NCBI GenBank assembly: GCA_963776795.1
Contig: CAVZNX010000014.1
Coordinates: 94,044 to 158,043 of the forward strand
DNA: 64,000 nt
Source of the DNA: an uncultured Chloroflexia bacterium
GTDB lineage: Bacteria > Chloroflexota > Anaerolineae > Anaerolineales > UBA4823
Reading direction: 5' to 3'
Below, piece after piece: positions 21,270-52,003 of this stretch. The notes beneath the pieces were generated by a model. The model ran no database searches and was not told the origin of the DNA. It saw only the letters and a list, made by a program, of their open reading frames with translations. Position numbers and translations under genes: made by a program. Every line of letters begins with the position of its first letter. Position 1 is the stretch's first letter.

Positions 21270-21286
21270 ATCAGCTCCGATTTAGA

Positions 21287-31006: not shown

Positions 31007-31059
31007 TTTTTGAACACAGCTGCCATTGGATGTGCCATCTTTTATTTCACGGTGACCGA

Positions 31060-32925: not shown

Positions 32926-33277
32926 TTATGTCCCTAAATAAGCCAGGCATAAGTTATGTTATGCTAATCCATATCACAGGTATCGTTTTTATTGAGAATT
33001 ATCGAACAATATAGATTTGATAAAAGGCACCGCCATTTTTCTATCCTGCATTGTGCAGATGTTGTTGTGTTTTTTACGTAAGTCTCATTTGATTCATCTC
33101 ACGATAGTTTCCAGATGTAAATATGGTGTTTGTTGTGCATCGGAACTGTTCTCACGCATCTCTCAACCAGAGCCAGATATACTCCGAGTCATCTGGCCAA
33201 AGATCGAGATCACCGCTTGATCCCGATCTTCTTCCTTGCGGTCAGCGGCAAAACCCTTATAAGCTCCGGTTCAATGA

Positions 33278-33439
33278 TCATGATCGGGTCTTGCTCAGTC
33301 CTTTGAGAAGTTTCATGACTTCATCTGTGTAGGCCTTACCAGCTGAAATATAAAAACCCATAATTTGATCATCTGCCTTATCCATATTTCGTTCATTTCT
33401 ATCGCTCGTATCATGATCATTTTTTGAGATTAATTTCAT
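33278..33439 (-). CDS. Possible 53-aa leaderless small ORF downstream of the predicted promoter
   Basis: Hand translation gives MKLISKNDHDTSDRNERNMDKADDQIMGFYISAGKAYTDEVMKLLKGLSKTRS. The ATG lies about 8 nt after a TAAAAT -10 box. There is no homology evidence. Confidence 0.2.
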   Translation of the reverse strand: MKLISKNDHDTSDRNERNMDKADDQIMGFYISAGKAYTDEVMKLLKGLSKTRS

Positions 33440-33447
33440 TCATAGAA

Positions 33448-33533
33448 ATTTTACTGGTCAGCAAGCGACTTTCCAATCACACATATCCCCCACCTCATTA
33501 CTTCCTGTCCCCTGGTTTCTGGACACATGTCCC
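33448..33533 (-). promoter_or_regulatory. Sigma70-like promoter (TTGGAA-N17-TAAAAT) with upstream operator TGTCCC-N8-TGGACA-CA-TGTCCC
   Basis: On the minus strand, -35 is at 33471-33476 and -10 at 33448-33453 with an exact 17-bp spacer. The operator is at 33506-33533. The same architecture occurs at 38363-38428. Confidence 0.45.
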
Positions 33534-33595
33534 ACCTCGGGTGGGCATATAACACGCCCTTTAGAGAAAATCAAGCAATAGGACTTAGCAAGAAT

Positions 33596-33626
33596 CAAAA
33601 CGGGCTTCATGAGCCCGTTTTTTTGT
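33596..33626. terminator. Rho-independent terminator (bidirectional form) after the GNAT genes
   Basis: AAAACGGGCT-TCATG-AGCCCGTTTTTTT: a 10-bp stem with a T-run on the plus strand and an A-run on the other side. Confidence 0.65.
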
Positions 33627-33646
33627 TAATTTTACATATTGTTGGT

Positions 33647-34116
33647 CTATTTATCCAGCCATTTGATCAGTTCGATCCAGGTATATGTCCTTACCCACCC
33701 ACTATCAAGCAGGTATTGGCTGATCCTGGATCCTTTCTTCAGGGACCTCGACAAGCACCGATTCTCTATGCGCTCCAGCCAGCCAGTCTTCTGCGACCCG
33801 GACCATTCTGGGGTAGAAATCCGAGCTCAGCATCTTCGATCACTGGCAGGAGCAGGGTACCCTTGTTCTGGTAACGCTGGTAGTCCGCCCTCAGGAACCC
33901 GATGATCCTTCCATCGACCAGGACAGCTTTTATCCACCAGGAAAATCCCGTGTAGGTAAGGAAGGACCTCTGCAAGATCGACAGAAAATAGCGGGAATCC
34001 AGACTGCCATTTACCTGAAGCACCAGGGGAGAAGTCGTCCTGCTTTCGATCGCGTGGAATACTGCCCGGTCCCGGCGGTTGACAGGACGAGTGGTGAAGC
34101 GATCATTAACCTTCAT
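33647..34116 (-). pseudogene. GNAT-family N-acetyltransferase-like protein, about 2 frame shifts
   Basis: ORF 33766..34116 (VLVDGRIIGFLRADY...) continues in two other frames by hand translation: FYPRMVRVAEDWLAGAHRESVLVEV, then SQYLLDSGWVRTY...WLDK, with the stop at 33647. Confidence 0.35.
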
Positions 34117-34612
34117 GATTGCCTCTGATCGGATGGCAGTCGGTGCTCATAGACAGAATAGCGGTTATACTCGGAAAATCCTTGCTTTCGTAAATTGCCC
34201 AGCGAGGCGAGGTTCGTATCAAGTACCTGGGCAGTCACGTAGGGATAGCCCAAGTTCAGAAAGCCTTTCCAGCCGCTTTTCAAGGAGTGCCTGACCAACC
34301 CCGCGCCTGCGATATTCTGGGTCGACCATCAGGTTGGTGACGGCCATCTGCTCCTTCCTGCCGATATACATCCCTCCCCCGGCCACCTTCCCCTCGACTT
34401 CTGCAACATAACCTTCCCACTTGATGCCCATCAAGGCGGTCAGCAGCTTATAGGGGATCATCCTCCAGCGGAATATCCTGCGGGTCTCCCGTTCGAAATC
34501 ATCAGGGCTCATCCCGGCTGCCCTGGTTTCTTCAGCAAAGGCCACCCGCGAGATCCGCAGGAACTCATCCACATCGGTATGGGCGAACTTACGTATAGCT
34601 GATATTTTCCAT
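34113..34612 (-). pseudogene. GNAT-family N-acetyltransferase, frame shifts
   Basis: Acetyl-CoA-binding motif MVDPEYRRRGVGQALLEKRLE in ORF 34219..34572. The C-terminus YVTAQVLDTNLASLGNLRKQGF is in ORF 34113..34298. The probable ATG at 34612 is one frame off. Confidence 0.65.
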
Positions 34613-34648
34613 TATGGATCACCTTTAAGTTAAATTCTTCCATCCGCA

Positions 34649-37021
34649 TCATGCCCTGACTCGCACCAAAATAGCCGTCCCTGATCCTGGAGAAGCAACA
34701 ATGCTCATCTCTGCCCCGATCATCGCAGCCCGTTCTTTCATCCCAAGCAGCCCGTAGTGGACGCCTCCCCATAGCCCTCCCTGCTCCGACATACCGATAC
34801 CGTTATCTTCGATGCGGACTTCAAGAATACCGTCGTCCCGCTGAGCCGTGACGGTGACATGGTCAGCCTGAGAATGTTTCAAGGCATTGGTAAGCGATTC
34901 CTGGACGATCCGGTAGATCGATGTCGCCTGTTCGTCAGTAAGCTTCAGATCCCCACTCAGCTTATTCCGCCACAGGATGGCGGTATCGTCTGCAGCGATG
35001 TCTTGCATGCTACTGATCAGATCCTGGAGGGCCAGGACCAACCCACGGTCAAGCAAGCTCGAGCGCTGTGCCTTGATGGTCTGCCTGAGGTTGGCGATCG
35101 CCTGGTCTATGAAAGACACTGTCTCCCGGATCGGACCTGGCCAGGCGCTGTTTTACAAAGAACAGGTTCTGCAAGACCGTATCATGCAGATCACGGGCGA
35201 CCTTTTTCCGCTGGTCCTCATCCGAACGCACCATCTGCTGGGTTAATCCCCTCAGTTCTTCCGCATGGATGATATTGGCGATGGTCAAGGCAGCCTGCTG
35301 GCTGACCGTCTCGAGGATCTGCAGATCCTGGCTTGAATAGACTTCTCCTGATGACCGCTCTCCAAGGATCAGCACGCCATACAGGATATCCTGGTGAAGG
35401 ATCGGCACCAGAACCTGGGCCCAGGAATATGCATCCCAACGCTCAAAAGATCCCTGGCTGACCGTATTCCACAGGCTTTGGGCAAGCACAGGCTTGCGGT
35501 AACTGACCAGCGCATTACAGACTTCATCATCCGGAAGGACCGAAAAAGACCCGGCATCCAGACCCTGGCTTTCGAAGTGGTCGCCCGATGCTAAAAGCAG
35601 CTCACTCCTGGAGATGTTCATCTTCTCCGGCAGCATACAGGTCAGCAGGTCAATAAAGTCCTGACGATCAACGGTCTGGGCCAGGCGGCTGGACAGGTCG
35701 GAGGTTACCGAGGTATAGTCATAATAGCTGTCCGTACAGCACCCGGTCGACCTGCATCTGCACCCGTTTCTGCAAGCTGGCTGAGGGTAAAGCGACCAGC
35801 ACACACAGCAGAGATCCTGCGATCACCAGTTGGACCGGCTGGTCAAACAACCTGGATAGTACGCTTAACACACAGAAGGACAGAAGCAGGACGGATAGGA
35901 TCAGTAAGAACAACACCAGCACCCGGTTGATAATAAGATCGACCTTGAGCAGCTTCCGCTGGTAGATCACATAACCATATGCGATCGGGATAAAGATCAG
36001 GGTCAGGCTGCTGATATTGCTCGGAACCAGGATGTATTCGCTCCCAGCTCCAAATACCAGGCGGGGAAAGCCGCTCAATACCAGGAAAGGCAGGAAACCG
36101 ATCAGGGTTCCAAGGAAGACAATATTGATCTGCCTTTTGATATCGCCATCCCTGGTAAGGAAGCGGTTCTTCAGCAGCAAGCCGATATCCACCAGGATGG
36201 ATAAATAAAAGACAATACTGATCACCCTGAACATGGTGGAAGAGGCTGGATTTTGGTTGGCGACTTCCAAAGAACCTGTTCCACGATATAGGCGATCCCC
36301 AGCAAAACCGAAACAGCAAAGGCACCATAGATCAGCAGGCTGCGAGTCCTGGATGAAAAAGAAGGCACCGGGAAATACAGGTGGGCAGCGGTGGCAAAAA
36401 AGATCGCGGCGGTAAAGGAAAGCATCGCCACATTGGGGGCAAACCAGGCGCAGCTCCAGTAACCAGGCCCCGTGGCTGTTAATGCCACACCTGCCAGCAC
36501 CCAGGCGATGCCGACCAGGCGCCCTCTGACCTCGGAAGCTGGAGAAAAGAACAGCAGGACCAATCCAAGCAGGGTAATGATCAGGGAAAGCACCTGAACC
36601 GGGAGGACTTCCAGCAGGTAATTGGGATATTGAAAATAGCTACCCACCCGAACAGGGATCGAAAGGGTTGCCCCACCTCGTTCGATCACATATACGCTCT
36701 GTTTCGCCTGCGCCCTTTGGTCGATGGACCGGGACATTTAGATCTGAAATGATATTTCCATCGATCGAAAGGACCCTATCCCCCACCTGCTAATCCAGCC
36801 TGCTCTCCAGGCCCACCGGGATCAAGGCTTGATATCACCGCGGAGTTCTGCTGGGAGTCCTGGTAGTCCAGCCACACCCCAGTGACCGGCACGAAGATGT
36901 AATAGGCTGCGTTATAGAACACGACCGCACAAATGGCCAGGAGAGCAAATCCGACCAGGAAACCGTTGCTGGTAACGAAACGGATCAGCCTGGGATAGCC
37001 TGGTTCAGGAGGGATCGCCAT
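34649..37021 (-). pseudogene. Sensor histidine kinase: TM anchor, PDZ-like domain, multi-TM block, GAF, HisKA_3, HATPase_c; about 4 frame shifts
   Basis: 36776..37081 has LDPGGPGEQAGL (PDZ-like). 36222..36737 and 35719..36270 are polytopic. 35049..35804 has a GAF-like region plus the H-box ARDLHDTVLQNL. 34649..35119 has the N/G boxes QESLTNALKHS...IEDNGIGM...GLLGMKERA. The start at 37021 overlaps the upstream gene by 17 nt. Confidence 0.75.
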
Positions 37022-37979
37022 CCGGCTCCTCTGACTGGCCAACCCGGTGCCGCTCCAGGAACAGGGCAGGGATCTTTTCAAGGACTTGTTTTTCCGGAGA
37101 ATCCGGAAGGAAGCTCAGCTGCTGCAGGGCACGGCCCTTCCACTCCAACAGCAAGGCGGATATGGCTGTGATAATATCTTTCCGGGTTAGTAGCTCGACC
37201 AGCTGCCCCCTGGTGCTGACGTCCAGGTTGCGAAGCTCTTCCTCACCTTCTGCCAGCAGGTACAGCAGGACTGGCAGGCTGATCTCATGGCTCGCTTCCC
37301 CGTCGGCCTGGCTGAAGATATCCCGGCAGTCATCGAAAAGCTGAAGCATGACCCCAAGGGAAGTGCCATACTCAGCCAGGGCGTGAATCGATCTTTCATC
37401 TGTGGTACCGGCAGCCGCACCAGCCCCCGCCCCTGCCATAAACACGCTGCCTGATTTTAAAATGACCGCTTCCCAGTAATTCATCAACGCCTGTTCCACG
37501 GAAAGCGGCTTATGGAGCAGATCCTGGTGCTGCCCGAACGAAGCCTTGAAACCTGCCTCGGCAAAGATCTGGACCGCGCGGCATGCCCCGCGGGGATCAG
37601 GGATCAAGGACAGGTCGTGAAATGCCTTGAAGACCAGGGAGGTGGCCAGGTTCATTGCTTGTTCCTTCGTTGGCAAGGCTGGCTCCGGCATGAACTGCCT
37701 ATCTTCCAGGTCGTCCAGGATCTCCGAGGCAAGATTGGCGGTGAACCAGGCGCTTGCCACACAGTTACCAGGTTCAGGAGTCCCACCAACTGCCACGCAG
37801 GCGATCACCGGAAGGGCGATCTGCCAGGCAGGTATCTCAGTGATGTGTCCAGCGATCAGCTGAGAACACTCTGGAAAGGTCAGGGCAAGCTCGCAGGAGG
37901 ATATGCGCCTGACTACAGGCTCCGAATAGATGCGAAGGATTTGATCTAGGTCGCGATCATCCACGGTGAATATCTTCAA
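37005..37979 (-). CDS. Polyprenyl synthetase-like (class I isoprenoid synthase fold) protein
   Basis: 324 aa with a TTG start. Two Asp-rich motifs sit in the expected order and spacing: EILDDLEDRQ (FARM-like) and LQLFDDCRDIF (SARM-like). Confidence 0.5.
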   Translation of the reverse strand: MKIFTVDDRDLDQILRIYSEPVVRRISSCELALTFPECSQLIAGHITEIPAWQIALPVIACVAVGGTPEPGNCVASAWFTANLASEILDDLEDRQFMPEPALPTKEQAMNLATSLVFKAFHDLSLIPDPRGACRAVQIFAEAGFKASFGQHQDLLHKPLSVEQALMNYWEAVILKSGSVFMAGAGAGAAAGTTDERSIHALAEYGTSLGVMLQLFDDCRDIFSQADGEASHEISLPVLLYLLAEGEEELRNLDVSTRGQLVELLTRKDIITAISALLLEWKGRALQQLSFLPDSPEKQVLEKIPALFLERHRVGQSEEPDGDPS

Positions 37980-39389: not shown

Positions 39390-39746
39390 TCAATATTTGC
39401 CGAACCTATTCCTGCGGAACGCCAGCACGATCCTGGCGAAAGCGAGCAGCATTTCCTGGTCGGTTTCTGAAAGCTGGGCTGCCACGTAATTCAGTTCATC
39501 CTGACACCGGAATTTCGTCTTGTGTGTGGGCATCCCAGCGGCCTTCAGAACGGTCTCTAGTGGAACTTCCAAGGCATCCGCAAGCGCCTTGCAGCTGGAT
39601 AGGCTCGGATGTTTAGTTTTTGAAGAAAGTAAATTATGAATTGCTGTTTTCGACAAGCCGGATTTCTGGGCGAGTTTTGCCTGAGTTAATTGCTTCTCGT
39701 GTATGATTTTATTGAGCCATTCAGAAAACAGGTCATCTTCCATCAT
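39390..39746 (-). CDS. XRE-family HTH transcriptional regulator (phage-repressor-like)
   Basis: KQLTQAKLAQKSGLSKTAIHNLLSSKTKHPSLSSCKALADALEVPLETV, 118 aa. Confidence 0.75.
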   Translation of the reverse strand: MMEDDLFSEWLNKIIHEKQLTQAKLAQKSGLSKTAIHNLLSSKTKHPSLSSCKALADALEVPLETVLKAAGMPTHKTKFRCQDELNYVAAQLSETDQEMLLAFARIVLAFRRNRFGKY

Positions 39747-40021: not shown

Positions 40022-40051
40022 AAAAAAAGCCCCCGACGCATGGTCGGGGGC
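40022..40051 (-). terminator. Strong rho-independent terminator ending the AAA+/vWA operon
   Basis: Minus strand: GCCCCCGAC-CATGC-GTCGGGGGC followed by TTTTTTT, 7 nt after the stop at 40058. Confidence 0.8.
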
Positions 40052-40057
40052 AGAATG

Positions 40058-41632
40058 CTATGCCAGGCTGTACAGCATCTGGCCCAGCTTTTCAGCTAAG
40101 CTTTCCCCATCCTGGCAGTTGACCAGGCGGGTGAACAGCATTTTCAGTTTGGATAGTGTTCCCCTGCCGAGATGGATACCGATCGGTATGAAACCGCCCT
40201 GTTCAAGGCTGCGCAGGTGTGCCTGGGACAGCTCCCAATCAGAAGCACTTTTCGACCTGTAGACCGGTTCACCATCATGGATGATGAGCAGGACACGCAG
40301 GCGTTCAGGCCGCTTGCGCAGCTCTGCTTCCGCCTTACGCAAGCCCCAGTCCAGGTACTCTTTGCTCGCCCAGGCCGTATAGCCTGCGATGAGGGCTTTG
40401 GCAGCTTCCTGGCTGTTGCTCGAAATAGGGACCACTTCAGACACCACCCTTTCGACCGGGATCCGTTCCGGCTGCAGGGATAGGCCACCCCGGTCGAGGT
40501 TATCTTCACCGAAGTAGGCCATGCCAAGAGGGATCCCCGCCTGCATCGCAGCCAGGTAGATGGTCATCAAGGCTTCACGGACCGCGGGTTCATAGAGATT
40601 CATTGAACCGGAACGGTCCACCAGGACGTAGAAAGCCAGGCTGCGGGCTGCTTTTCCTAAGTAAGTGGTGCCAGGTGCGGCGTATCCGGCGTGCGGATCT
40701 CCTGGCGGAAGCTGTACCGGCCATGGTACTCGTGCGGTGCAGGGCGCTGGTCAGGAGCCTGTTCTTTCAAGGCATCAGCCAGGCGTGCAGCATGTGCCTG
40801 GACCCTTTCCTCCAGCTCCAGGTAAGGGGCTGGCTCAAGCGCCTTTTTACTGCTGGGCACAGGTGGCAGGTCGCGGTCTTGCAGGTCACCACCCAGACCG
40901 GGGCTGAGATCGGCAGGTCCCTCTGGGATCGAGCATGGCCTGCCCCCTTTTTTGGGAATTCCACCCGCAGAGATATGCTCCAGGCCAAGGCGAGGCATGG
41001 AGGCGGGTAATGCCTAAGGTTTCCAGGATCTTGCGCCCGGCGGCGATCACCCTGCCGGTATCCGAGGCAGTCCAGGACTGCTCGACCAGGTCCCGGATCT
41101 CCGCCCACAGCTTCTGGCCTTCCTGCGAAACTTTCAGATGGGTGAACATTTCCTGCTCACCGGTGCGCGCATGCGCCCAGCGCCAGGCCAGGCAGCAGGC
41201 ATACGCCTGGAGGTTCGCAGCTGCAGGGACAGCCTTCATGTCGGCATAGATAAAGTCTCCCAGCAAGCGCACCGCTGGTGCGATCCCAGGATAGAGCTTG
41301 CAGATGCCTCGCTCGACACGCTCGTCTTCCAGGATATTCGCGAGTTCCTGCAGGATATTCTCAGACTGGTCCGGCCAATCGCTGGTGAACCAGGCATGCC
41401 CGCATTCATGGGCCAGCAAGCCCTGGGTGAGGCGGAACTGCACATCCACGGGTTGTTCAGGGAACAGCTGCGGGTTGACCTGGATGAGCCGGGTCAGGGG
41501 TGAGTGGGTTCCAGTCCCTTCAGGCTGCAGGCGGATGGTGTAGCGCCGCCCGGAAAGCAGCGCCAGAGCCCATTTGGTGAGCCTCTCGTTGGTGAGGCGC
41601 CAGAGCCACCATAGTTGTCTTTGATCAGCCAT
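40058..41632 (-). pseudogene. HExxH metallopeptidase-like domain fused to a vWA domain (DUF2201-type architecture), 2 frame shifts
   Basis: 40886..41632 has NPQLFPEQP...GLLAHECGHAWFT. The linker is in 40657..40998. Hand translation across 40621 gives LAFYVLVDRSGSM, a MIDAS DxSxS motif, continuing in 40058..40621. The start is 9 nt after the AAA+ stop, with AGGAG. Confidence 0.65.
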
Positions 41633-41641
41633 GGGTAGCTC

Positions 41642-42604
41642 CTAGAGTATCGCCAGGCTGGCCAGGTAATCCTCCAGCCCCTTGAACGAACCCTGGTTGA
41701 TGCGCCCGGTATGGTCCCGCCCACACACGATATCCGCCCAGGAAAGCTTTGCCTGCTGCATGACCCCATCGAGCGTCCTGGTCGTGTTCGATTCGCATTT
41801 TCTGGCCCAGTTGAGGAGTGTGGCCGTGTCGATACAGCCAGGCATCTCTCCATTGGCCATCAACCGGCGGGTCTCCTGGGCCAATTTCACAAGCGATTGG
41901 CTCGTGCCACTGTCCAGGCGGGCAGCCTCCCGCCGCAGCAGGGACAGCTCATCGTCATACTCCAGGTAGTCAAACTCGATCACGGTATCGAACCGCCTGC
42001 GCACCGCTGGGTCAAGGTCGTAGACCTGATAAAGGCGGCCGAAGTTGCCCGCGGCTACGATACGCAGGGTTTTAACCGGGCAGAGCACGACCTCACCTGT
42101 CAAGGGGACCTCAACGACATAGTAGCAGCCTGGCTGATGGACATCCAGTCCCATCTGGCGGCAGGCCTCCCCGGTTTTGGGATTCATCAGGCCCAACAGG
42201 ATGTTCAGGTGGGGACGAGGGATGCGGTTCACCTCATCGATGAACAAAAGGACAGGCTCGAGATTGGCCTGGCGCATGGCGCGCAGCAGGGGTCCATCCA
42301 CCCATTTCCGGCTGCCATCTTCCTGGGGCAGGATCGCCCCAATGAAGTCCAGATCGGTCAGCCCTTCCTTGCCTTCGATCACCACCAGGAAAAAATCCAT
42401 ACTCGCCACCACCTGGTGGAGCGCATACGTTTTTCCTGATCCCGTAGGCCCGGCCAGGAGGATATTATCCCCAGAACCGAGAGCCGCTGCCAGGGCACCC
42501 ACCTGCCATCCAACAAAACCGCTGGCTTGACTAGGCTGTTCGGCCTGTGGCGAAGCAACTCTCTGGTTTGGGATCATCTCCTTCAAGCAGTGTACGCAGT
42601 GCAT
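41642..42604 (-). CDS. AAA+ ATPase, MoxR/CbbQ/NorQ-like (AAA_5)
   Basis: Walker A ILLAGPTGSGKTY. Walker B LLFIDEVNRIPRPHLNILLGLM. DPAVRRRFD sensor/arginine region. 320 aa. Confidence 0.8.
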   Translation of the reverse strand: MHCVHCLKEMIPNQRVASPQAEQPSQASGFVGWQVGALAAALGSGDNILLAGPTGSGKTYALHQVVASMDFFLVVIEGKEGLTDLDFIGAILPQEDGSRKWVDGPLLRAMRQANLEPVLLFIDEVNRIPRPHLNILLGLMNPKTGEACRQMGLDVHQPGCYYVVEVPLTGEVVLCPVKTLRIVAAGNFGRLYQVYDLDPAVRRRFDTVIEFDYLEYDDELSLLRREAARLDSGTSQSLVKLAQETRRLMANGEMPGCIDTATLLNWARKCESNTTRTLDGVMQQAKLSWADIVCGRDHTGRINQGSFKGLEDYLASLAIL

Positions 42605-43212
42605 CCGGATCGGTCAACACCCCGACATTGGTGGGGTGCAGCTCAAGAGCAGCGCAGGGGTACTGCGGACCGATCTGCAAGCCTTCCAACCGGCTGTTGC
42701 CAGGTTCAGGCAGCGCATTTCCATAACGCAGGAAATAGTACAGCTCATCGGCTGCCCGGCATAATGGCTCCTTGATCTCGCCTGCGCGGCCGTGGCGCTG
42801 GTATGCTTCCAGCAGTTCAAGATAGGAGAGCCTGAAATCCATTGCCGTTCCAGGATCCGCCAGGGACTGGATGATCGCCAGAACGCCCAGGTGATAGGTG
42901 ACCTTGCTTTCATCACCATGCGGGACACCACAGTGGGAAGTAGACCAGTCCAGCCAGCATTCGGCGGTGGTGCCGGGGCGGGTGTGCGAGCGCACGATCG
43001 CCCGGACAGATGCACCTGAAGTGGATACTATGGGCTTCCAGTACGCAGCCGTCCAGGGTGCTGAGCAAGGCACGCACCAGGATGGCTGATACAGCTGCCT
43101 TGCCCGTACGATTTCGCCGGGCCGTCCAGCTGTGTTCCTCTCCACCGCGCAGCCAGGGGATATGGTCTTCGACCAGCGGTGTACGTTTTCGAAAAAGCAA
43201 TAATGTGTCCAT
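42531..43212 (-). pseudogene. Hypothetical protein, operon partner of the AAA+/vWA pair; one probable frame shift near 43000
   Basis: The N-terminus from ORF 42913..43212 (MDTLLLFRKRTPLVEDHIPWLRGGEE...) reads as protein-like. The C-terminal two-thirds come from ORF 42531..43220 (HLGVLAIIQSLADPG...YLELLEAYQRHGRAGE...). GGAGG RBS before 43212. Confidence 0.4.
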
Positions 43213-43247
43213 ACAGACATGCCTCCAGTAGATTAGGTTCGGGAGGG

Positions 43248-43331
43248 TTCATCTCCCTTCAGCTGTCAGGGATGGCTCCGAAACAGCCAGAGGGAGATGA
43301 AACATCGAGGCGCACCGGGTTGGTGCGCCTC
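43248..43331 (-). promoter_or_regulatory. Two consecutive perfect hairpins in the intergenic leader between the Zn-finger gene and the next gene
   Basis: Minus strand: GAGGCGCACC-AACCC-GGTGCGCCTC (43307-43331), then TTCATCTCCCT...32 nt...AGGGAGATGAA (43248-43301), then the GGAGG RBS. Confidence 0.45.
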
Positions 43332-43347
43332 ATTGACCCCCGGAAAT

Positions 43348-43854
43348 TTACCAGATGTCTTCTGAAAGCGGCTCTGGAGGCGGCAGACCATGCCGGGCGG
43401 CATGCTTTTTAGCGAACTGCCACCTCAAGACAGCTACCATGCGCTGCCAGTAGTGGGCTGAGCCACCCGCATCACACCGCCAGCCAGCACCGCGCTGGGG
43501 ACTGCCCAGGGAATTATCGAAGGATACCCCTGCATGGCAGACCGGGCAGCGGGCAGGGATGACCGGGTAATATCCTGGCGGAGGGTCTGGGGCCTGTTCG
43601 CCTCCGGCAGCCAGGTTGGCTCGAACCACATCCGCTGCCGGGCAAAGCTCACCCAGGTAGCAGGTACAGGTGCCAGCCTTGCTGACGAAGTGGACCCTGG
43701 GCTGGACATGGCCGCCAAGATCCACGGCATAAAAATAACCGCTCACGGACACGCTGGCTTCCAGCATGGCCCTGTGCAGGGCAAGCCGGTCATACCTCAG
43801 CTGGAAAGCCCTCACCGGTCCGGTTTTGTCATTTTCTTGTGGGTTTGTTTTCAT
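43348..43854 (-). CDS. Cys-rich Zn-finger protein (SWIM-like CxC..C element plus C-terminal zinc-ribbon-like CPVCH...RCD)
   Basis: GTCTCYLGELCPAADVV lacks the canonical SWIM His. CPVCHAGVSF...WRCDAGGSAHYW follows. The ATG at 43854 has a GAGG RBS; the listed ORF start at 43935 is probably spurious. Confidence 0.4.
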   Translation of the reverse strand: MKTNPQENDKTGPVRAFQLRYDRLALHRAMLEASVSVSGYFYAVDLGGHVQPRVHFVSKAGTCTCYLGELCPAADVVRANLAAGGEQAPDPPPGYYPVIPARCPVCHAGVSFDNSLGSPQRGAGWRCDAGGSAHYWQRMVAVLRWQFAKKHAARHGLPPPEPLSEDIW

Positions 43855-43946
43855 GATGATTGCCTCGGATGCCAGGAAACAGGCGGGCAGGATGTGCGCG
43901 CCTGATCCTTTTTTTGGAGATCGCACCGTCCGCACAAATCACGGGA

Positions 43947-44600
43947 TCAGTACGGGCAATCGGCTTCGGCGACCTCCCGGTGCGGGATGTTTCCGGCTTC
44001 TTCTACTTTATAGGCGATCAGGTTGTAGTATGCCTTGCCATTGTCTGGCGAGACCTGGTAGCTGAGCCGGCCGACAACGGTGGCCAGCTCACCTTTATGT
44101 AATCCAGCCAGTGCCTTGGGGACCGACTCATCCCCTTCTTTGGATGTGAAGCCTTTTACGGTCAACCACAGCGAAGGCTTATAGCTTCCCGTCGCGTCCT
44201 TACCCTGGCTCAGGGCCATGCGTACTCGGCTCCACAGGTTGCCAGCCTCTGAATAGCGGCTGTCAGTGTCCTGGCCGACACGCAGGGTGAGATAGGCATA
44301 GTTGCGCAGCCTGCCATCACTGGGCGCAGGTTCGATCCTGGTCGGGAAGAAAATGATCATGCTCTGACCATCCTTCTCTTCATATGCCAGGCGACCCACC
44401 AGGGTCAGCTCACCCATTGATAGGATGCCTGCCGTCCCTTCAAGGGCTACGATACGCAGCGGCATCGAGGCGCCTTTTTCGATGGGTAAGGTGGCCAGTC
44501 CGATCGCGTACGGCTTGCCTTCCTTGCTGGTCTTATGCTCTACTGAGCTGACATTCACGGTAAAGACCGCGAAGTTCTTGAATTCTGACCTTGTAGTCAT
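43947..44600 (-). CDS. Hypothetical protein with two OB-fold/SSB-like halves
   Basis: 217 aa with AAGGAG RBS. ELTLVGRLAYEE... and LWLTVKGF...LHKGELATVVGRLSYQV...YNLIAYKVEE follow the SSB OB-fold pattern. This rests on pattern only. Confidence 0.35.
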   Translation of the reverse strand: MTTRSEFKNFAVFTVNVSSVEHKTSKEGKPYAIGLATLPIEKGASMPLRIVALEGTAGILSMGELTLVGRLAYEEKDGQSMIIFFPTRIEPAPSDGRLRNYAYLTLRVGQDTDSRYSEAGNLWSRVRMALSQGKDATGSYKPSLWLTVKGFTSKEGDESVPKALAGLHKGELATVVGRLSYQVSPDNGKAYYNLIAYKVEEAGNIPHREVAEADCPY

Positions 44601-45527: not shown

Positions 45528-46316
45528 TTACCGTTTGGTGTACTGGATCAGTTTTTGGGCGACCAGGCACGTCTGGGCATAGGCGGCCCAGACCTCATCG
45601 GGAGCCTGGCCATCGGATAGGTTCGCCAGCACGCTGGCCTGGTGGGCTGCGATCAGGAAGGAACGCAGGTTCTCTGAATAGATACGGCTTCCCAGGGAAC
45701 CTGATACCCGGATGCGATCCTTAAGTTTCAGGATGACAGCCCGCCCGTCCACCCGCTGGTCCAGGAACTGGACCGTCACATAATGGGGTGTCCGCCGTTC
45801 CCGCCCATGGTTGCCAGCTGCAGGGGTGGAGGCGGTGTGCCGGTCGTAAACGGCCAGGCGTAGAAAAAGGTGCCCACCATATTCCCAGACCCTGGCCACC
45901 ACGCCATCGACGCGGGCGAAACTTGCAGGTGAAAACCTGGCCGGATCCAGCAGCTCCAGGGTCTCCGGGACGACACAGGTCACGGAGCGTTTGACCTGGG
46001 CGCTCGAGGCAGCCAGCAGCTCAGGGATGCGTTTGACAAGCTCCTCTTCCCGGGCTTTGAGCAGAAAATCGCGCAGGGTCTCCCACTGGGGGAGGTCATC
46101 CAGGTAGCCAGTGATGTGTAGCGCGTCGCCTTTCAGCAGGCTGACATCCCGCCCACCGACCTGGCCTCCAGGCAGCCTCAGGGTCAGCCGTGGGTCGACC
46201 TGGTTTGGGATGGTGTCCAGCTCTTTTTCTGCATCCGTTGCACCGGTATCGATACGGGCGAAGACATCCCCGGTCGAACGGGACCAGATCTTGGTCACAT
46301 GGCCTGCCAGGTCCAC
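45528..46316 (-). CDS. Double OB-fold SSB-like protein
   Basis: 262 aa with a GTG start. An AAGGAGG ~70 nt upstream suggests a frame-shifted longer N-terminus. Second half: HYVTVQFLDQRVDGRAVILKLKDRIRVSGSLGSRIYSENL, an SSB-like pattern. The first half is analogous (LAGHVTKIW...LLKGDALHITGYL). Confidence 0.4.
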   Translation of the reverse strand: MDLAGHVTKIWSRSTGDVFARIDTGATDAEKELDTIPNQVDPRLTLRLPGGQVGGRDVSLLKGDALHITGYLDDLPQWETLRDFLLKAREEELVKRIPELLAASSAQVKRSVTCVVPETLELLDPARFSPASFARVDGVVARVWEYGGHLFLRLAVYDRHTASTPAAGNHGRERRTPHYVTVQFLDQRVDGRAVILKLKDRIRVSGSLGSRIYSENLRSFLIAAHQASVLANLSDGQAPDEVWAAYAQTCLVAQKLIQYTKR

Positions 46317-46604
46317 CTGGTTGCAGTCATAGCGTTCGGGGGCAGCAGATGGTAATAAATCGTGGGGTGATCAAATCAAAATACCTCCTTGGTGGATCCC
46401 CAGGCAAGCCTTTTCATTGATCGACCTGCCTGGGTCTCAAAAGTAATAATGAACATTACAATGATTGCAATCGCTTGAAAACGGTCTCAATTGTTAAGGT
46501 TCGTGTCATCCTGTAAACAGGTCCACTTGATCAGTGACCTGCCAGATCCTTGAGAGAGGGAAGGCAGGTGGCCTTCCCTCAGGCACGCTGCGCAAGCGGA
46601 CGGG

Positions 46605-47459
46605 TCAGGCAGGCTGCAGCTCGGCCTCGACGAAAGCCAGGTACTTGCGGGCCGCAGCCTGGTCCAGGCGGGCCTGTTCCGTGGCTGGTTTCATTTCATT
46701 CGCATACCAGCGCAGTGCAGCCAGGCCAGCGTCAAGACCGCGCGGGTTCTCCTTGACCAGCCTGTGTAAGCTCCAGCCGGAGTAGGCCTTCCCGTAGCGG
46801 ATCAGGTATGCACCAGGATCTTGATCAGGCTGTACGTCAGGCGCAGGCACGGGTTGCGCGGGGTCGTCAAATCCCAGTTCTTTCAGGATCTCACCTCTCG
46901 ATCTGGGGATCTTAGGACCACTGCCATTGTTCCCATCACCATGCCCGGGGGGATGTGGGCTGTTGCCATTCCCACCCGGTTGAGAGGCTGCACCCAGCAG
47001 CAGGCTGGCATTATGGTGGTCAAGCTGCCCTTTATATACCGGCAGCTGGAAGCACAGCGACTTGAGGGCTGCACCGATCGCGGCCGTGCGCGCCCCTTCT
47101 TCAGCGTAAGCAAAATCATTGGTGTTGGCCCCACCGGTGATGATGGGGTACCAGTTCACCAGGTCCTGCTCGTTGATCAGGGCATAGCTGAAGACTGCGT
47201 ACTTCAGGTGGGCGGTGACCCGCTTGCCCTCACCCAGCCCGATGAACACCATGTCCTCCGGGCTGTATTCCAGCTTCCAACCCAGCCCGCGCAGGCCGAA
47301 GACCTGGGTGGCGCGCTCGATCATGTAGCCGGTGTTGATGTCTGTCAGGTCAGCACCGCCGGGCACACCCCGATAAGCCTGCGGCTCGAAAGGCAGGGCC
47401 AGCCTGTCCACGATCTGGCTGACCGGTATGCCGGTCAGCGAAAAGAGCTTGTCGTTCAT
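46605..47459 (-). CDS. Rad52/22-family single-strand annealing protein (phage recombinase-like)
   Basis: DINTGYMIERATQVFGLRGLGWKLEY parallels the Rad52 [20 protein letters not shown] block. EEGARTAAIGAALKSLCFQL parallels KEAVTDGLKRALRSFG. Gly/Pro-rich linker and C-terminal tail. GGAGG RBS. Confidence 0.55.
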   Translation of the reverse strand: MNDKLFSLTGIPVSQIVDRLALPFEPQAYRGVPGGADLTDINTGYMIERATQVFGLRGLGWKLEYSPEDMVFIGLGEGKRVTAHLKYAVFSYALINEQDLVNWYPIITGGANTNDFAYAEEGARTAAIGAALKSLCFQLPVYKGQLDHHNASLLLGAASQPGGNGNSPHPPGHGDGNNGSGPKIPRSRGEILKELGFDDPAQPVPAPDVQPDQDPGAYLIRYGKAYSGWSLHRLVKENPRGLDAGLAALRWYANEMKPATEQARLDQAAARKYLAFVEAELQPA

Positions 47460-47647
47460 GATTGATTACCTCCTGAGGTAGACCGCCCCTGCAATGAGAG
47501 GCGGTGGATAGGAACACCTCTCGCTGCAAGGATGGAACTGCCTGGCGGATGTCAGGATCTACTCGCCCAGAACTACAGACCGGTATCGTCCGTCTCTTTG
47601 CATGTTAAGGTGCCTTGCGTGATCCGCATCTAGCGGACCGATCGCAG

Positions 47648-47693
47648 TCAACCTCCCGGGACTCGAACCCGGGTTCAGGCCTGCCCGAGGTTG
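47648..47693 (-). ncRNA. tRNA-like minihelix (acceptor stem plus T-arm only) at the 5' end of the Rad52-like gene leader
   Basis: Minus strand: CAACCTC-GGGCAGGCCTGAAC-CCGGG-TTCGAGT-CCCGG-GAGGTTG-A. Perfect 7-bp acceptor, canonical T-loop with the G53-C61 pair. No D arm or anticodon arm. Confidence 0.45.
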
Positions 47694-47871
47694 AATAAGT
47701 TTATATTCCTATCCCAATGCATCGCACTTAAATGACCTGGAAGAAGCGGTTTTGCCATGGCCAGGTTGGCACGGGCGCCTTGGTTATCACCAGACGCAGT
47801 CCCGATCGATCCTGGTAAGACAATATAACCATCCTCTGCCACTTGGTGCACGGCTTTCGGCCATTGCCTGC

Positions 47872-49161
47872 CTACCACTCTTCTATCCATAACGGCGTCT
47901 CCTCGCTAATGTCGGGAACTTTACAGGCGATCAACGTTTCAAGGTCGGTAGCGATCCCATGCAGGTTTTTCAGTTTACAATCCCCGACCAGCCGCGCCCG
48001 GCGCTTCGCATTTCGGGCACACAGCGCGACCCGGCCTTGGAGCTGGGAGAGGTTGCGCCATTTTGCATCCAGTTCCTTGCTGGAGAGCTCCACCTCCACG
48101 AAGGTCGTCTCTGGCGGGCTGCCAGGGAAACAGCGGCTGACAGAGACGTCCGGAACCGCATTGGTCTGCACCGTCTCCAGTTTCGGCAGCACACCCACCT
48201 GGTAGCCGCGGAATCGAGCGTGCATGGCGAAGATCATCAAGGCCAGGGTGTGCTGGGGATACTGCTCACCCTGGTGGTAGCGGTTCACGCGCTGGCGTTC
48301 TGTTTCCACAATATTCCAGCCGAGCACCTGGCACAGCTCACGCCCGTCCTCGGTCAACTGCAGCATCGCCAGCGACGTGTTCGGCGCGCTCATCTCCAGG
48401 ATCTCGATGCTCACGAAATTCTTTGCGACCATGTTGTCATACACCCTCCTCAACGCCCCGGTGCGAGAGCTGATCCCTTCGACCAGGCTGATCAGGTGAT
48501 CGATCTCCAGGCGGACATCCAGGCCACGCGCCAGCAGGTAGACCACGTACAGCTTGCGGCGTACCTGGCGCTCCTGGTCGGTCCCGGTCATCCTGGGTTG
48601 CTGAAAATGGTTCTGGAAACGCGCCGGGAGGGTCGAGGGAAGCCTGAGGCTGCGCAGTTCAGCTAGCAGCTCATGGTGGATGAAAGCCTGGCCCATCGTA
48701 TCGATCCTTTCCAGCCCAGGAGCCTGAGGACTCCGGAGCACAGGATCCTGATCCAGGGGATCTGGTGGCTGATCACCGGTTGGCTGAACGCTACCTATCC
48801 AGCTGTTATTGCTAACGACCGGCTTATGATCACCGGATACCAGATGGGCTAGTTTTTCCTTGAGGGCCTGGTTCTCGCGTGTCAACCGTTCGAGTTCAAT
48901 GGGCGCGCTTGCATTCCATCCTTCCAGACCTGGTGCTACAGGCAGGCTGTTATAGAATCTCCGCCACTCATCAGGCCCCCAGCTTTCCGGGGCATACGGG
49001 TCGGCGCGCCTGATCTCTTCGATCTGTGGACCCGCAAGCCGTTGGGCCTGCTCGGTCAGGACACTGCGGAATTCCCGCAGGGCATTTTCGGCCTGCTGGC
49101 GGAAATGGCGTTCGGCGTCCAGCAGGTCATCCAGGGCATTGCTGCGCACATCACCAGGCAT
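47872..49161 (-). CDS. Coiled-coil / wHTH / PD-(D/E)xK-like nuclease-fold protein (replication-relaxation-like?)
   Basis: 429 aa. GAGG RBS before the ATG at 49161. Predicted wHTH region RKLYVVYLLARGLDVRLEIDHLISLVEGIS...LQLTEDGRELCQVLG. Then HTLALMIFAM...VPDVSV...TFVEVELSSKE, which could be a D...ExE/K nuclease motif. Confidence 0.35.
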   Translation of the reverse strand: MPGDVRSNALDDLLDAERHFRQQAENALREFRSVLTEQAQRLAGPQIEEIRRADPYAPESWGPDEWRRFYNSLPVAPGLEGWNASAPIELERLTRENQALKEKLAHLVSGDHKPVVSNNSWIGSVQPTGDQPPDPLDQDPVLRSPQAPGLERIDTMGQAFIHHELLAELRSLRLPSTLPARFQNHFQQPRMTGTDQERQVRRKLYVVYLLARGLDVRLEIDHLISLVEGISSRTGALRRVYDNMVAKNFVSIEILEMSAPNTSLAMLQLTEDGRELCQVLGWNIVETERQRVNRYHQGEQYPQHTLALMIFAMHARFRGYQVGVLPKLETVQTNAVPDVSVSRCFPGSPPETTFVEVELSSKELDAKWRNLSQLQGRVALCARNAKRRARLVGDCKLKNLHGIATDLETLIACKVPDISEETPLWIEEW

Positions 49162-49675: not shown

Positions 49676-50122
49676 TCAACGAAAGCGAAGGGAGGTGGCA
49701 GCAAAAGCCGATAGCGTGACGGATGAGCGTCCGCCGGCTGCGCTGAACAATACTGGCACCTCTGCAGACGCAGAACACAGCACCTGGTGGTTAATATCAT
49801 CAAGTGTGAGACCGTAAACCGGAGCGAAGGCCATGCGGGTGCGCTCGTTCAGCGTGGCAAGAAAAGTGTTGAAAGCCACTTCGTACACTTCACCTTCATT
49901 CCCGATCTGGGTCTGGCCAGTATTGGTGTATGCCAGCCTGTCGCCAGCTGTCCAGGCAGCCGCTTCACAGGCGGCGTCCGTGGCCGTTTGCAGCCTGCCG
50001 CGGACATATAAAAGGCGGGTGCCATCGACCACGAGCAGCATGAGCGGCAAGAACACGGTCGTCAGGAACGCAGCGGTCCAGGCCAGTGAAGAACCCTGCT
50101 CACTACGCTTTGATCGCCTCAC
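49676..50122 (-). CDS. TadG/TadE-G-like (Tad_N) pseudopilin-like protein
   Basis: QGSSLAWTAAFLTTVFLPLMLLVVDGTRLLYVRGRLQTATDAACEAAAW matches the Flp-pilus TadE/G-like N-terminal pattern. Confidence 0.55.
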   Translation of the reverse strand: MRRSKRSEQGSSLAWTAAFLTTVFLPLMLLVVDGTRLLYVRGRLQTATDAACEAAAWTAGDRLAYTNTGQTQIGNEGEVYEVAFNTFLATLNERTRMAFAPVYGLTLDDINHQVLCSASAEVPVLFSAAGGRSSVTLSAFAATSLRFR

Positions 50123-50562
50123 CAGCCCTCCTGCCGGAAATAAGAACTGGCTGAGCTTGTGAAGGTCCCCGGTGTGCCCACCCCAAAGATGCTTGCCAGG
50201 CCCCCGAAATAATTGGGAACGGAGTAGCTCACCACAACGACCATCAGGTCACCAGGCTCGCCACCGCCTGATACGCTGACAGAGTAGGTCCCGACGGGGA
50301 TCGCCTCCAGCATCTGGTAAGCGCTGGAGGCAGCGACTCCCGAAGCATTGGACTGGGCTACGGAACCCATGCGTGCCCCATAGTTGGCCGCATTCCCGGC
50401 GTTCACTGCCGCGAACCCGAGGATCGCCAGGTTGACCAGGCCCATGGAGATGAGCAGGAGTACAGGCAGCACCAGGGCGGCTTCGTCCAATTCAGCACGG
50501 CGGTCAGCTAGAAGTTTGCGCATGGGTTCCAGGCTCTCGATGCTAGATCGCCGCAGCGACAT
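50119..50562 (-). CDS. TadE-like pseudopilin
   Basis: RRAELDEAALVLPVLLLISMGLVNLAILGF. 4-nt overlap with the downstream gene. Confidence 0.55.
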   Translation of the reverse strand: MSLRRSSIESLEPMRKLLADRRAELDEAALVLPVLLLISMGLVNLAILGFAAVNAGNAANYGARMGSVAQSNASGVAASSAYQMLEAIPVGTYSVSVSGGGEPGDLMVVVVSYSVPNYFGGLASIFGVGTPGTFTSSASSYFRQEGW

Positions 50563-50692
50563 CCTGAAAGGTCTGGGCTACCTTGGCACCCAGGGGAGAC
50601 AGGCCGATGATGGCTGCGATAACGAACAGTGCGATCAGCAGGGCTTTTTCATCGAGTTCAGCTGAGGTATCTTTAAATATTCGTTTGAGCAT
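50543..50692 (-). CDS. flp: Flp-family type IVb pilin
   Basis: MLKRIFKDTSAELDEKALLIALFVIAAIIGLSPLGAKVAQTFQDVAAAI. Flp-like length and layout. AAGGAG RBS upstream of the ATG at 50692. Confidence 0.6.
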   Translation of the reverse strand: MLKRIFKDTSAELDEKALLIALFVIAAIIGLSPLGAKVAQTFQDVAAAI

Positions 50693-50812
50693 TTTTCGAT
50701 AAATTCTCCTTATTTTTGTTTTGAGCTGCATTCAATGTAAATACAGCTATTCAGGTACGGATGGGTAGTCGTTAGGGTATTTTTCCTATTTGATCCAGTA
50801 CACCTCCTTTCA

Positions 50813-51294
50813 TCAGGCGGCCAGCCGCTGGGTGATGAGCACCCCGAGCTGGCCGATCGTGAATAACCCAATACCCAGGGCAAAGCCGGGCACACCGGCA
50901 TAACGATTGGAGTGATCGTGATGAATGACCATGACTACAAAAACATACACCAGGGCCCCAGCCCAGGCAGCCAGGACAAGTATGGGGTTGATAAGGGCCA
51001 GGACCACCAGGATCTTAAGATCAGCACCACCCATAAGGTGGTAGTGCCAGGCAACCACGAGGGCAAGGCTAAAATGAGGAAGTGCATTAAAAATCCTGTC
51101 ACCGATCCGCTCCGCACCTCTTTCATCAGCCAACCCGCCAGGAGAACTGCTGGTATGGCTGGCAGGGTCAGCCAGTTGGGCACATGATGAGAATGAATAT
51201 CGAAAACCGCACAGGCACATAACCAGGTGATCACAAGCGTGGAGATCGAAAGAGAAAGGGATGATGCTGTTACATGCATATCGTAATCATGCAT
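50813..51294 (-). pseudogene. Prepilin peptidase, A24 family (CpaA/TadV-like), one frame shift
   Basis: 50935..51294 has AVFDIHSHHVPNWLTLPAI, carrying the first catalytic Asp. 50813..51220 has GGADLKILVVLALI, carrying the second catalytic Asp. Confidence 0.6.
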
Positions 51295-52003
51295 GGGATT
51301 ATATGGAAGATGGTTGAAAAATTGGGATGTGGAAGGGCAGTATCCACACAGGTGGAGAAATAATGACGGTAAAATTCCTCAATATCGGGGAACGCCGAGT
51401 TGAAGAAAAAGCCAGTTGACTGATCAATTGGGGACATCCGCACTGGCTGTGGCGGATTCGATTTATGAAGGATTCAGAATTAATCGGGTGTGTAATACTC
51501 TGCTAACAATAACTATTTTCTGTTGCCTATATTCGTTCAATAAATTCAAGCGATAAGTGCAAATAATGGGGTGTGTTATTTGCACTTATTGTTATAAGAT
51601 GGGCCTGGATTTATATCGTCGCATTTACCAGCTAGTTTTACATCGCGTGAAGCAATCGTCTTCCAACCGCGTGCCAACAATCCTTGGTAAAACGAATGAT
51701 AATAGCAATTACCAACGAAGCGTTGCAGGAGGATTGATACTATCTCATTGCATAGCAGATTTGAAAATGCGAATAGATTGATGCGCGTCTCTGGTGACAC
51801 ACAAAATTGGAGATCTTAAGGCGGTACTATTCTAGAATTTTTATCCAATGGCGTTTTCGGTATAAAAATAAAAAAAATGAAATGAATGCCGTAATTAAAC
51901 CCGATATAAGAAATAAATGTTCGCTTATTGATGCCCAAGAGCCAACATATGATATTCTGCAGATATCAAACAGACTTTAACAAATTCTAAACTGAGTGCG
52001 AAT

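Follow-up and report, generated by a model that had tools for sequence, protein, structure and literature searches.

The stretch of DNA considered here, hereafter the window, comprises 64,000 nt of contig CAVZNX010000014.1 from an uncultured bacterium of the Chloroflexia. Its minus strand carries open reading frames (ORFs) covering 44600 down to 40058, among them the gene of an AAA+ ATPase and, directly downstream of it, a gene whose product unites an HExxH motif with a von Willebrand factor A (vWA) domain. The original prediction, made from the sequence alone, had counted five tightly packed genes in this interval; the ORFs are there, but they resolve into four genes, and the packing is interrupted by a gap of 135 nt. 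As judged from sequence comparison, the operon encodes a protein resembling single-stranded DNA-binding proteins (SSB), a Cys-rich (Zn-ribbon) protein, the AAA+ ATPase, and its zincin-vWA partner. The value of the window is chiefly corrective in that there are four genes instead of five and that the frame breaks within them are probably technical; what is new is the extension of a plasmid-borne protein family to Chloroflexota, an undescribed N-terminal domain of the ATPase, and the fused adjacency of the ATPase/partner pair.

Reading frames of the operon

The first gene (43947..44600, minus strand) encodes the SSB-like protein, which has 217 aa, is made up of two halves resembling OB folds, and ends C-terminally in an acidic tip (...EADCPY); the second (43348..43854, minus strand) encodes the 168-aa Cys-rich protein, in which CxCx5C and CPxC...C...H motifs occur. 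The 135-nt gap which follows contains a hairpin, found in a terminator scan at 43306..43332 on the minus strand (11 pairs, 8 of them G-C, with a weak T tail, running from 43332 to 43306), which might serve in attenuation or in RNA processing. The AAA+ gene (41642..43212, minus strand) codes for ~523 aa, with the N-terminal domain extending from 43212 to ~42580 and the AAA+ domain from ~42571 to 41642. Its stop codon (41642-41644) is separated from the start of the partner gene (41632) by the 9-nt gap that had been noted before. The latter gene (40058..41632, minus strand) encodes ~524 aa arranged as a zincin N-terminal domain, a linker, and a vWA domain, and the operon closes, as predicted, with a strong intrinsic terminator (40029..40051, minus strand), that is, a 9-pair stem (8 G-C) from 40051 to 40029 followed by TTTTTTT.

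The supposed fifth gene, encoding a separate 227-aa protein without recognizable motif, is the N-terminal domain of the ATPase, cut off by two frameshifts. Homologs of the AAA+ ORF are 520-545 aa long, with about 523 aa being typical, and in a tblastn search the intact homolog P0003 of the related locus L001 (related loci are designated here by L-numbers) matches 43212-43030 with its residues 1-61, 43025-42561 in a second frame with residues 63-217, and 42571-41645 in a third frame with residues 214-523. Because one intact homolog aligns across all three frames, the “unknown protein” is to be regarded as part of the ATPase.

Frame breaks had been noted for two of the genes and are present as two each, near 43028 and near 42566 in the AAA+ gene, and near 41000-41010 and near 40660 in the HExxH-vWA gene, where they are mutually compensating. 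In all probability they are assembly errors and not real, because breaks run through the whole window and include the genes of NAD synthase (in split ORFs matching Pfam profile positions 5-89 and 93-234) and asparagine synthase (likewise split) in the low-GC flank. Regions with broken genes lie at 20255-22511, 30238-37021, and 50816-51345, and within the block of the window which is colinear with L001, comparison with the intact L001 proteins reveals at least 12 frame breaks in six genes (those of a prepilin peptidase, the AAA+ and vWA proteins, a PDZ-histidine kinase, DnaB, and a DnaD-like loader). An alternative, which concerns an axis separate from function, is that all four frameshifts exist in the genome, leaving the operon a decayed remnant of pseudogenes on a degrading island. 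The occurrence of four breaks within 3.1 kb, the absence of any of them from a long homopolymer run, and the damage to other genes of the same GC-rich block would agree with decay; nevertheless there is little to recommend it, as the essential housekeeping genes for NAD synthase and asparagine synthase are broken alike, the homologous AAA+ gene of L020, from a long-read, long-contig metagenome-assembled genome (MAG), is likewise in three pieces of the same sort, the catalytic motifs are all intact, the segments aligned by tblastn contain zero in-frame stop codons, and the two shifts of the vWA gene compensate one another. The homopolymer test itself does not separate error from mutation, because the sites lie outside long runs.

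The ATPase and its HExxH-vWA partner

The segment 41642..42604 contains the Walker A motif GPTGSGKT, the Walker B motif LLFIDEVN, and an RRRF region, and its assignment as AAA_5/MoxR-CbbQ-like was correct: Pfam AAA_5 matches with 3.9e-18 (66.2 bits; cut-off 22), and CbbQ_C reaches 15.9 bits, which is below its cut-off of 20.6. A profile built from 15 homologs matches the AAA domains of Midasin, CbbQ, and NorQ among PDB entries, and CobS more weakly. The AlphaFold2 (AF2) model (mean predicted local distance difference test score, pLDDT, 86) has NorQ as its best Foldseek match (E = 2.5e-16, target TM-score 0.83), followed by CbbQ (4e-15); the ATPase matches phage CobS (phrog_249) with 2e-19. Residues 1-210 are modeled confidently as a beta-meander followed by a helical bundle. 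For this domain (~210 aa) no relative was found among PDB sequences or in Pfam, and the Foldseek search with the full model was swamped by AAA+ matches and says nothing on the fold of the N-terminal domain. Vcrx090 and the DUF3150 protein of IncC plasmids (see below), as well as the N-terminus of the Deinococcus ATPase, were compared with it and show no resemblance. The protein is thus a NorQ/CbbQ-class MoxR AAA+ ATPase with an extra N-terminal domain of ~210 aa.

That the partner gene combines HECGH with a C-terminal vWA motif (VDRSGSM) holds true. Its product contains HECGH, NILEDERVE, and VDRSGSM, the latter as part of a complete MIDAS (the metal ion-dependent adhesion site; DRSGSM ... HDG). 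Among 24 homologs, H75, E76, H79, N99, E102, D103, R105, and E107 are invariant, as are the MIDAS residues D339, S341, S343, and D453; by sequence, this set constitutes a gluzincin-type HExxH...E signature plus a complete MIDAS site. The AF2 model (pLDDT 86, with a linker of low confidence) comprises one helix, a three-stranded sheet, seven helices, the linker, and the vWA domain. In Foldseek searches the vWA domain is nearest to NorD (3.7e-10) and to the MIDAS domains of MDN1/Rea1, and in a library of viral structures the model aligns in its entirety to CobT-like proteins of phages (lowest E, 3e-15). The partner profile matches NorD (2e-8) and CobT (6e-6) in the PDB, and CobT_C or VWA was detected by Pfam in 15 of the 24 family members (best 9e-6 and 4e-7). 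No direct match to the CobT N-terminal domain (PF06213) was obtained with any of the 24, while the N-terminal domain of the full-length IncC homolog scores 26.6 bits against this family (cut-off 26.1; 5e-6). The DUF2201-type architecture that had been suggested for the partner is ruled out by the Pfam scan, in which none of the 24 family members matched PF13203 or PF09967 at E <= 1.

A 2026 preprint on CobSTN describes the N-terminal domain of CobT as one that “resembles peptidase M48C”, with alpha1, a three-stranded sheet, and eight helices, after which come a ~90-residue linker and a shaft-bearing vWA domain. As the order of elements in the model fits this published description, the partner is predicted to have CobT architecture, that is, an M48C-like zincin N-terminal domain, a conserved linker, and a MIDAS vWA domain. 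Neither zinc nor an HExxH motif is mentioned for the true CobT_N in the CobST structure papers. This predicted layout is shared with CobS/CobT and with viral cobS/cobT (phrog_249 plus the “peptidase” phrog_459); in contrast to CobS/CobT, the ATPase of the window resembles CbbQ and NorQ more closely than CobS and possesses the 210-aa N-terminal domain, the HExxH of the partner is invariant, and there is no CobN or cob operon nearby. NorQ/NorD and CbbQ/CbbO, in turn, are the best structural matches for both subunits and have the same two-gene arrangement, but NorD and CbbO carry other N-terminal regions, serve nitric oxide reductase (cNOR) and Rubisco as clients, and are encoded in metabolic operons, in all of which the pair differs. 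Pfam, Foldseek, and adjacency of the genes agree on a MoxR-class AAA+ protein with its cognate, HExxH-bearing vWA partner, as had been proposed.

Considering these relatives, the pair might, like CobST, NorQD, or CbbQO, serve as a chaperone in metal insertion or maturation, with the HExxH holding a metal or delivering it to a client, which could be encoded by the element itself (the Zn-ribbon protein or RadC) or by the host (CobN). It would fit that the nearest solved relatives, by both sequence and fold, are NorQD and CobST, that the partner is predicted to have the architecture of CobT, that viral cobST was proposed to hijack host CobN (PMC8651126), and that in three loci the gene immediately 5′ of the pair codes for a Cys-rich protein which probably binds Zn. 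Such a role is rather improbable, however, since no gene for CobN, NorB, or a Rubisco-type client and no cob, nor, or cbb gene (other cobalamin genes included) is present in the window or in any of the ~25 related loci, which bears out the earlier view that this is not a metabolic chaperone pair. Further, the small protein encoded upstream is not conserved, an unrelated protein without Cys taking its place elsewhere. The combination of an invariant HExxH with a Glu, finally, marks a catalytic zincin and not a site of metal transfer, and neither zinc nor HExxH is mentioned for the true CobT_N.

The only PDB sequences matched by a profile of the partner N-terminal domain are those of IrrE, marginally so (E = 0.011 to 0.017 over 85 residues), in an alignment extending over a strand, the helix with HExxH, and the E-x-R-x-E helix downstream of it. 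It could therefore be asked whether the pair is an ImmA/IrrE-type anti-repressor, the zincin of which cleaves an XRE repressor (for example, the product of 39390..39746) while the AAA+ ring gates the protease. An XRE gene lies directly 3′ of the operon in the window, and XRE genes are found near the pair in L002 and L035 as well. Nonetheless this explanation is very improbable: the IrrE matches are of marginal significance, a strong terminator separates the XRE gene from the operon, and in the colinear L001 no XRE gene occupies that position. Furthermore, none of the 24 family members matches Peptidase_M78 in Pfam, and the known ImmA/IrrE proteases require no vWA domain and no AAA+ partner.

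Distribution and genomic company of the pair

Close homologs of both proteins are found only in MAGs of Chloroflexota, namely Anaerolineae, Thermoflexales, and Chloroflexia. Neighborhoods were clustered for about 20 loci, and ~25 related loci in total were clustered or scanned. Wherever the contig is long enough, the AAA+ and partner genes are adjacent and in constant order; of the co-occurrence envisaged for the whole gene set it is this pair which recurs, whereas the SSB-like gene stands beside it in 5, and the Cys-rich gene in 3, of the ~20 clustered loci. The conserved core is, thus, the AAA+/vWA pair and the two other genes are optional.

A setting typical of mobile elements, as the original prediction had it, is apparent from the related loci. 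Recurrent neighbors of the pair encode RadC (10 loci), a RuvB-like ATPase, a PD-(D/E)XK nuclease, and DnaN, further a tyrosine integrase and giant fusions of a DUF6094 methylase with an SNF2 helicase; in L035 the neighbors are ParAB, SSB, a primase, RadC, a toxin-antitoxin pair, and an integrase, and a 1,659-aa helicase is encoded near the pair in L037. In the window, the operon is part of a GC-rich block (~29.9-51.3 kb, ~21 kb long) with 50-63% GC versus ~40% in the flanks. The block is colinear with L001, an ENA contig, and spans prepilin peptidase and TadE-like genes, the operon, and genes for a response regulator, a histidine kinase, DnaB, and a DnaD-like loader.

Some Chloroflexota pairs have another kind of company. 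In L004 (5332-13670) the pair abuts genes for a DpnII-type restriction enzyme, a prokaryotic Argonaute (pAgo), BrxL, and PglZ; in L019 (3439-5370) a pAgo gene lies beside it, and in L010 (13969-16794) one for an nSTAND1 NTPase. This bears on the possibility that the pair is a defense system in which a MoxR-vWA switch senses an invader and then frees the zincin or the N-terminal domain of the ATPase as the effector. The pAgo, restriction, BREX, and nSTAND1 genes adjoining the pairs of these three loci favor it, as do the type ISP restriction-modification, TRADD-like, SLFN, and ResIII genes of L002, L003, and L037, and ternary conflict systems based on MoxR-vWA, including rare ones with metallopeptidase effectors, have been described (PMC7159879). 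Still, a defense function, which the original prediction had put forward, is doubtful and of low probability. The search of PADLOC-DB v2 gave no significant match: the best, IetA (1.3e-5), covers part of the AAA+ domain, and mad8 and BrxF gave weak partial matches. The commonest neighbors are replication, partition, and establishment genes of mobile elements, neither a VMAP-like third component nor a typical effector domain is present, and full-length homologs of the partner are conjugative backbone genes next to an experimentally defined anti-defense operon. The nearest studied relatives point, instead, to anti-defense on behalf of a mobile element (PMC7498323, PMC11602122).

These relatives belong to a large family, and to call the system uncharacterized overstated its novelty. 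A profile of the partner N-terminal domain retrieves 2,389 clusters among 1.84 billion representatives, most of which are 500-750 aa long, carry the domain N-terminally, and possess a C-terminal vWA domain where Pfam detects one. Megaplasmids of Deinococcus encode full-length partner homologs (hhalign 99.9%, 1.3e-36) in the vicinity of an AAA+ gene, ParB genes, and genes for a 1,719-aa methylase-helicase, SSB, and TopA. IncC-type plasmids and an IncC-type island encode another full-length homolog, of 598 aa (hhalign 99.3%, 1.3e-20 over 451 columns); there, the gene order is AAA_5/CbbQ_C ATPase, hypothetical protein, ssb, bet, exo (YqaJ), DUF3150, and HExxH-vWA. This IncC-type homolog is carried by 1,159 PLSDB records, most of them of IncC type and 962 of them predicted to be conjugative; members of the partner family belong to the backbone of over 1,000 sequenced, mostly conjugative plasmids. 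In the IncC-type island (L033, 7471-8748) it is the DUF3150 gene which lies between exo and the HExxH-vWA gene; the 425-aa “cobalamin biosynthesis protein” of IncC had been considered as a second AAA+ protein, which is ruled out as it is this DUF3150 protein.

Phages encode more distant relatives. A phage origin of the pair was considered and rejected: tblastn with the partner against 50,697 phage records returned no match, and a scan of IMG/VR returned four, which are alike at the level of motifs only. The similarity of a Gordonia phage protein to the partner is confined to the linker and vWA region. The “peptidase” of T4-like cyanophages shares the HExxH...EDxRIE...YPG block (hhalign 96%, 4e-9). 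At the sequence level, viral contigs and phage genomes contain virtually no members of the partner family, in which respect viral cobST differs from the pair. In Synechococcus phage S-MbCM7 (L032, 253-7125) a CobT-like “peptidase” which has kept the HExxH is encoded together with CobS immediately behind the recombination nuclease genes gp46/gp47, an arrangement of recombination genes, CobS, and peptidase that echoes the link of MoxR/vWA with recombination genes on plasmids. By sequence, the pair from Chloroflexota is a distant branch of a widespread, little-understood, mobile element-borne CobS/CobT-like family.

Another potential relative, the function-unknown yehLMPQ cluster of E. coli, had been described correctly: its annotation in strain K-12 is that of a MoxR ATPase with a vWA protein and a zinc-finger protein of the SWIM type. 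As the same system it can be dismissed, the similarity being generic and restricted to the vWA (hhalign 71%, 3.8e-5) and AAA+ (96%) domains; nothing in YehM resembles the zincin domain of the partner. Just 5′ of yehLMPQ lies yehF, which encodes a WGR domain. A WGR-domain protein is also encoded 3′ of the pair in L002 (4660-13469), with genes for a 1,176-aa SNF2/DUF8437 helicase and a 518-aa Helicase_C protein on the 5′ side; together with L030 (475-14945), this suggests that an association of WGR, MoxR, and vWA proteins is possibly recurrent.

A possible role in element establishment

Taken together, the core of the operon is best read as a two-gene, ATP-driven remodeling module akin to CobS/CobT and NorQ/NorD, residing on a mobile or integrated element of Chloroflexota, to which reading as a whole a probability of about 0.45 may be given. 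Its parts are not equally secure. The identity of the proteins, a NorQ-class ATPase and an adaptor of CobT architecture on DNA of the mobile-element type, can be stated with considerable confidence; that a protein is the target of the module while the element enters a cell or becomes established is a tentative proposal drawn by analogy.

How such a module might operate can be envisaged from solved complexes. By analogy to NorQD and CobST, the ATPase would form a hexamer, the pore of which is entered by a shaft or finger of the partner vWA domain while the N-terminal domain of the partner docks on the AAA+ lid; NorQD (PMC13036017) provides the template for both the finger in the pore and the remodeling of the linker. 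Hydrolysis of ATP would then pull or twist the linker, whereby a target held at the MIDAS could be brought to the zincin site. From the genomic context and from the hde operon of IncC, the module would be active, together with SSB-type proteins, as DNA of the element enters the cell or replicates there, and might aid establishment of the element, for example, by countering host restriction or a host protein bound to DNA.

The hde operon (vcrx089-093), which corresponds to the first five genes of the IncC string, is the closest characterized case (PMC7498323). There, vcrx089, encoding an ATPase with AAA_5 and CbbQ_C domains, acts together with vcrx090 against type I restriction in the recipient cell, while ssb, bet, and exo serve the repair of CRISPR-induced breaks (PMC7498323); deletion of vcrx089-090 increased restriction by EcoKI and EcoBI 400- to 900-fold (PMC11602122). 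An older paper reported that ORF101 (MoxR) and ORF103 (VWA) of pCAR1 are conserved in R478, Rts1, SXT, and R391; deletions in the broadly matching region of SXT alter transfer at most 10-fold. The resemblance between the window and the IncC/SXT hde locus consists of an HExxH-vWA protein homologous over its full length to the partner, with HExxH, N-x-L-E-D-x-R-I-E, and DxSxS shared, and of an AAA_5-class MoxR ATPase and an SSB gene in the same string on a mobile element; it extends to related IncT, IncP-7, IncH, and SXT/R391 elements. The two differ in that the IncC ATPase has 322 aa and lacks the N-terminal domain present in the ~523-aa ATPase of the window, and in that vcrx090, ssb, bet, exo, and the DUF3150 gene separate the IncC ATPase and vWA genes, whereas those of the window are adjacent. 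Homologs of RecT, YqaJ, and DUF3150 were not detected in the window, the upstream genes giving no Pfam match to RecT or YqaJ; of the hde products, aside from the generic resemblance of the ATPases, only an SSB-like protein is shared.

Several observations weigh against a role in establishment as derived from IncC. The match of the window's ATPase to Vcrx089 is one shared by MoxR proteins in general (hhalign 97%, identity 31%), about as good as that to YehL of E. coli, and no homolog of Vcrx090 was found. Moreover, the IncC phenotype was mapped to vcrx089-090 and not to the HExxH-vWA gene, which is not among the five genes depleted in the transposon sequencing (TnSeq) experiment either (PMC7498323). 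The 284- and 429-aa proteins encoded upstream of the operon find no support as a single-strand annealing protein (SSAP) or an exonuclease, and the adjacency of pAgo, BREX, restriction enzyme, and nSTAND genes to several Chloroflexota pairs would fit a defense role equally well. The HExxH could be a site of metal binding or metal delivery and not that of a peptidase. Lastly, the mobility of the GC-rich block itself is putative: an integrase, a tRNA gene, and flanking repeats are all missing from the window, and a search of the borders of the block gave no direct repeats of 13 bp or longer.

A wider generalization of the remodeling module would be that mobile-element CobS/CobT-like modules are ATP-driven, MIDAS-targeted metalloproteases, in which the AAA+ ring would employ the vWA adaptor to grasp a restriction or defense complex of the host, or some other host protein bound to DNA, and pass it to the retained zincin site of the partner. 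This is a long shot, but if it were true, it would define a new mechanistic class of anti-defense proteins common to IncC/SXT elements, Deinococcus, Chloroflexota, and phage “cobST”, with the Chloroflexota branch having added a target-recognition domain of its own to the ATPase. Apart from that, more than 1,000 plasmids, many of them multidrug-resistance plasmids of the IncC type, carry the partner as a backbone gene without assigned function; the family is present also in related integrative elements and Deinococcus megaplasmids and, more distantly, in phage “CobT/peptidase” genes. The retention of HExxH on a CobT scaffold in all branches, plus the company of SSB, recombination, and anti-restriction genes, provides a testable hypothesis for this resistance-plasmid gene. 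It also calls into question whether viral cobST are auxiliary metabolic genes of cobalamin synthesis.

Accessory and neighboring genes

For the SSB-like protein, the presence of two SSB-like OB halves is weakly supported: the match to Pfam SSB (2.6e-4) is below the cut-off, and a profile of four homologs finds the (two-OB) SSB of Thermus and that of Bacillus at 1e-3 to 1e-2. At the equivalent position, L035 encodes a bona fide SSB (PF00436). The Cys-rich protein displays the expected CTCYLGELC, CPVCH, and WRCD motifs, and the call of 168 aa from an ATG at 43854 matches the public protein P0378. Its former description as a SWIM-like Zn-finger has to be dropped; SWIM (PF04434) is not matched in Pfam, the pattern being CxCx5C-P-A without the final His. 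No Pfam, PHROG, or PADLOC match was obtained for this protein, and its 86 homolog clusters, some from Chloroflexota MAGs, are all devoid of a Pfam domain; by its motifs it probably binds Zn. In the window as well as in L001 and L006, the gene directly precedes that of the AAA+ protein, and in four other loci its place is taken by the gene of an unrelated, Cys-free protein of 172 aa.

The operon had been placed between recombination genes and an XRE repressor gene. The latter is present beyond the terminator (39390..39746, minus strand; Pfam HTH_3, 1.1e-8), but is not conserved beside the pair elsewhere, including L001. The label “recombination” for the three conserved genes upstream (45528..49161, minus strand), which were delimited by neighborhood clustering, is unconfirmed: their products of 262, 284, and 429 aa have no Pfam or PDB match, and the genes are colinear with those of L001, L018, and L020. 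A Rad52-like SSAP was considered for the 284-aa protein and a PD-(D/E)XK exonuclease for the 429-aa protein, neither of which is supported by Pfam, PHROGs, or PDB profiles; a PHROG “exonuclease” match among the upstream proteins covers 36 residues and is too short to be used. By eye, the 429-aa protein contains an invariant PD...ExExSxK block like that of PD-(D/E)XK nucleases, and the 262-aa protein appears to have two OB folds.

Elsewhere in the GC-rich block, a polyprenyl-synthetase-like ORF (37005-37979), which L001 lacks, is inserted between the genes of the response regulator and the histidine kinase. At 49676-51345, genes for TadE/TadG-like pilins and a prepilin peptidase (A24) adjoin the genes of DNA metabolism; the same combination is encountered in L001, L020, and L036, which hints at a pilus linked to the element.

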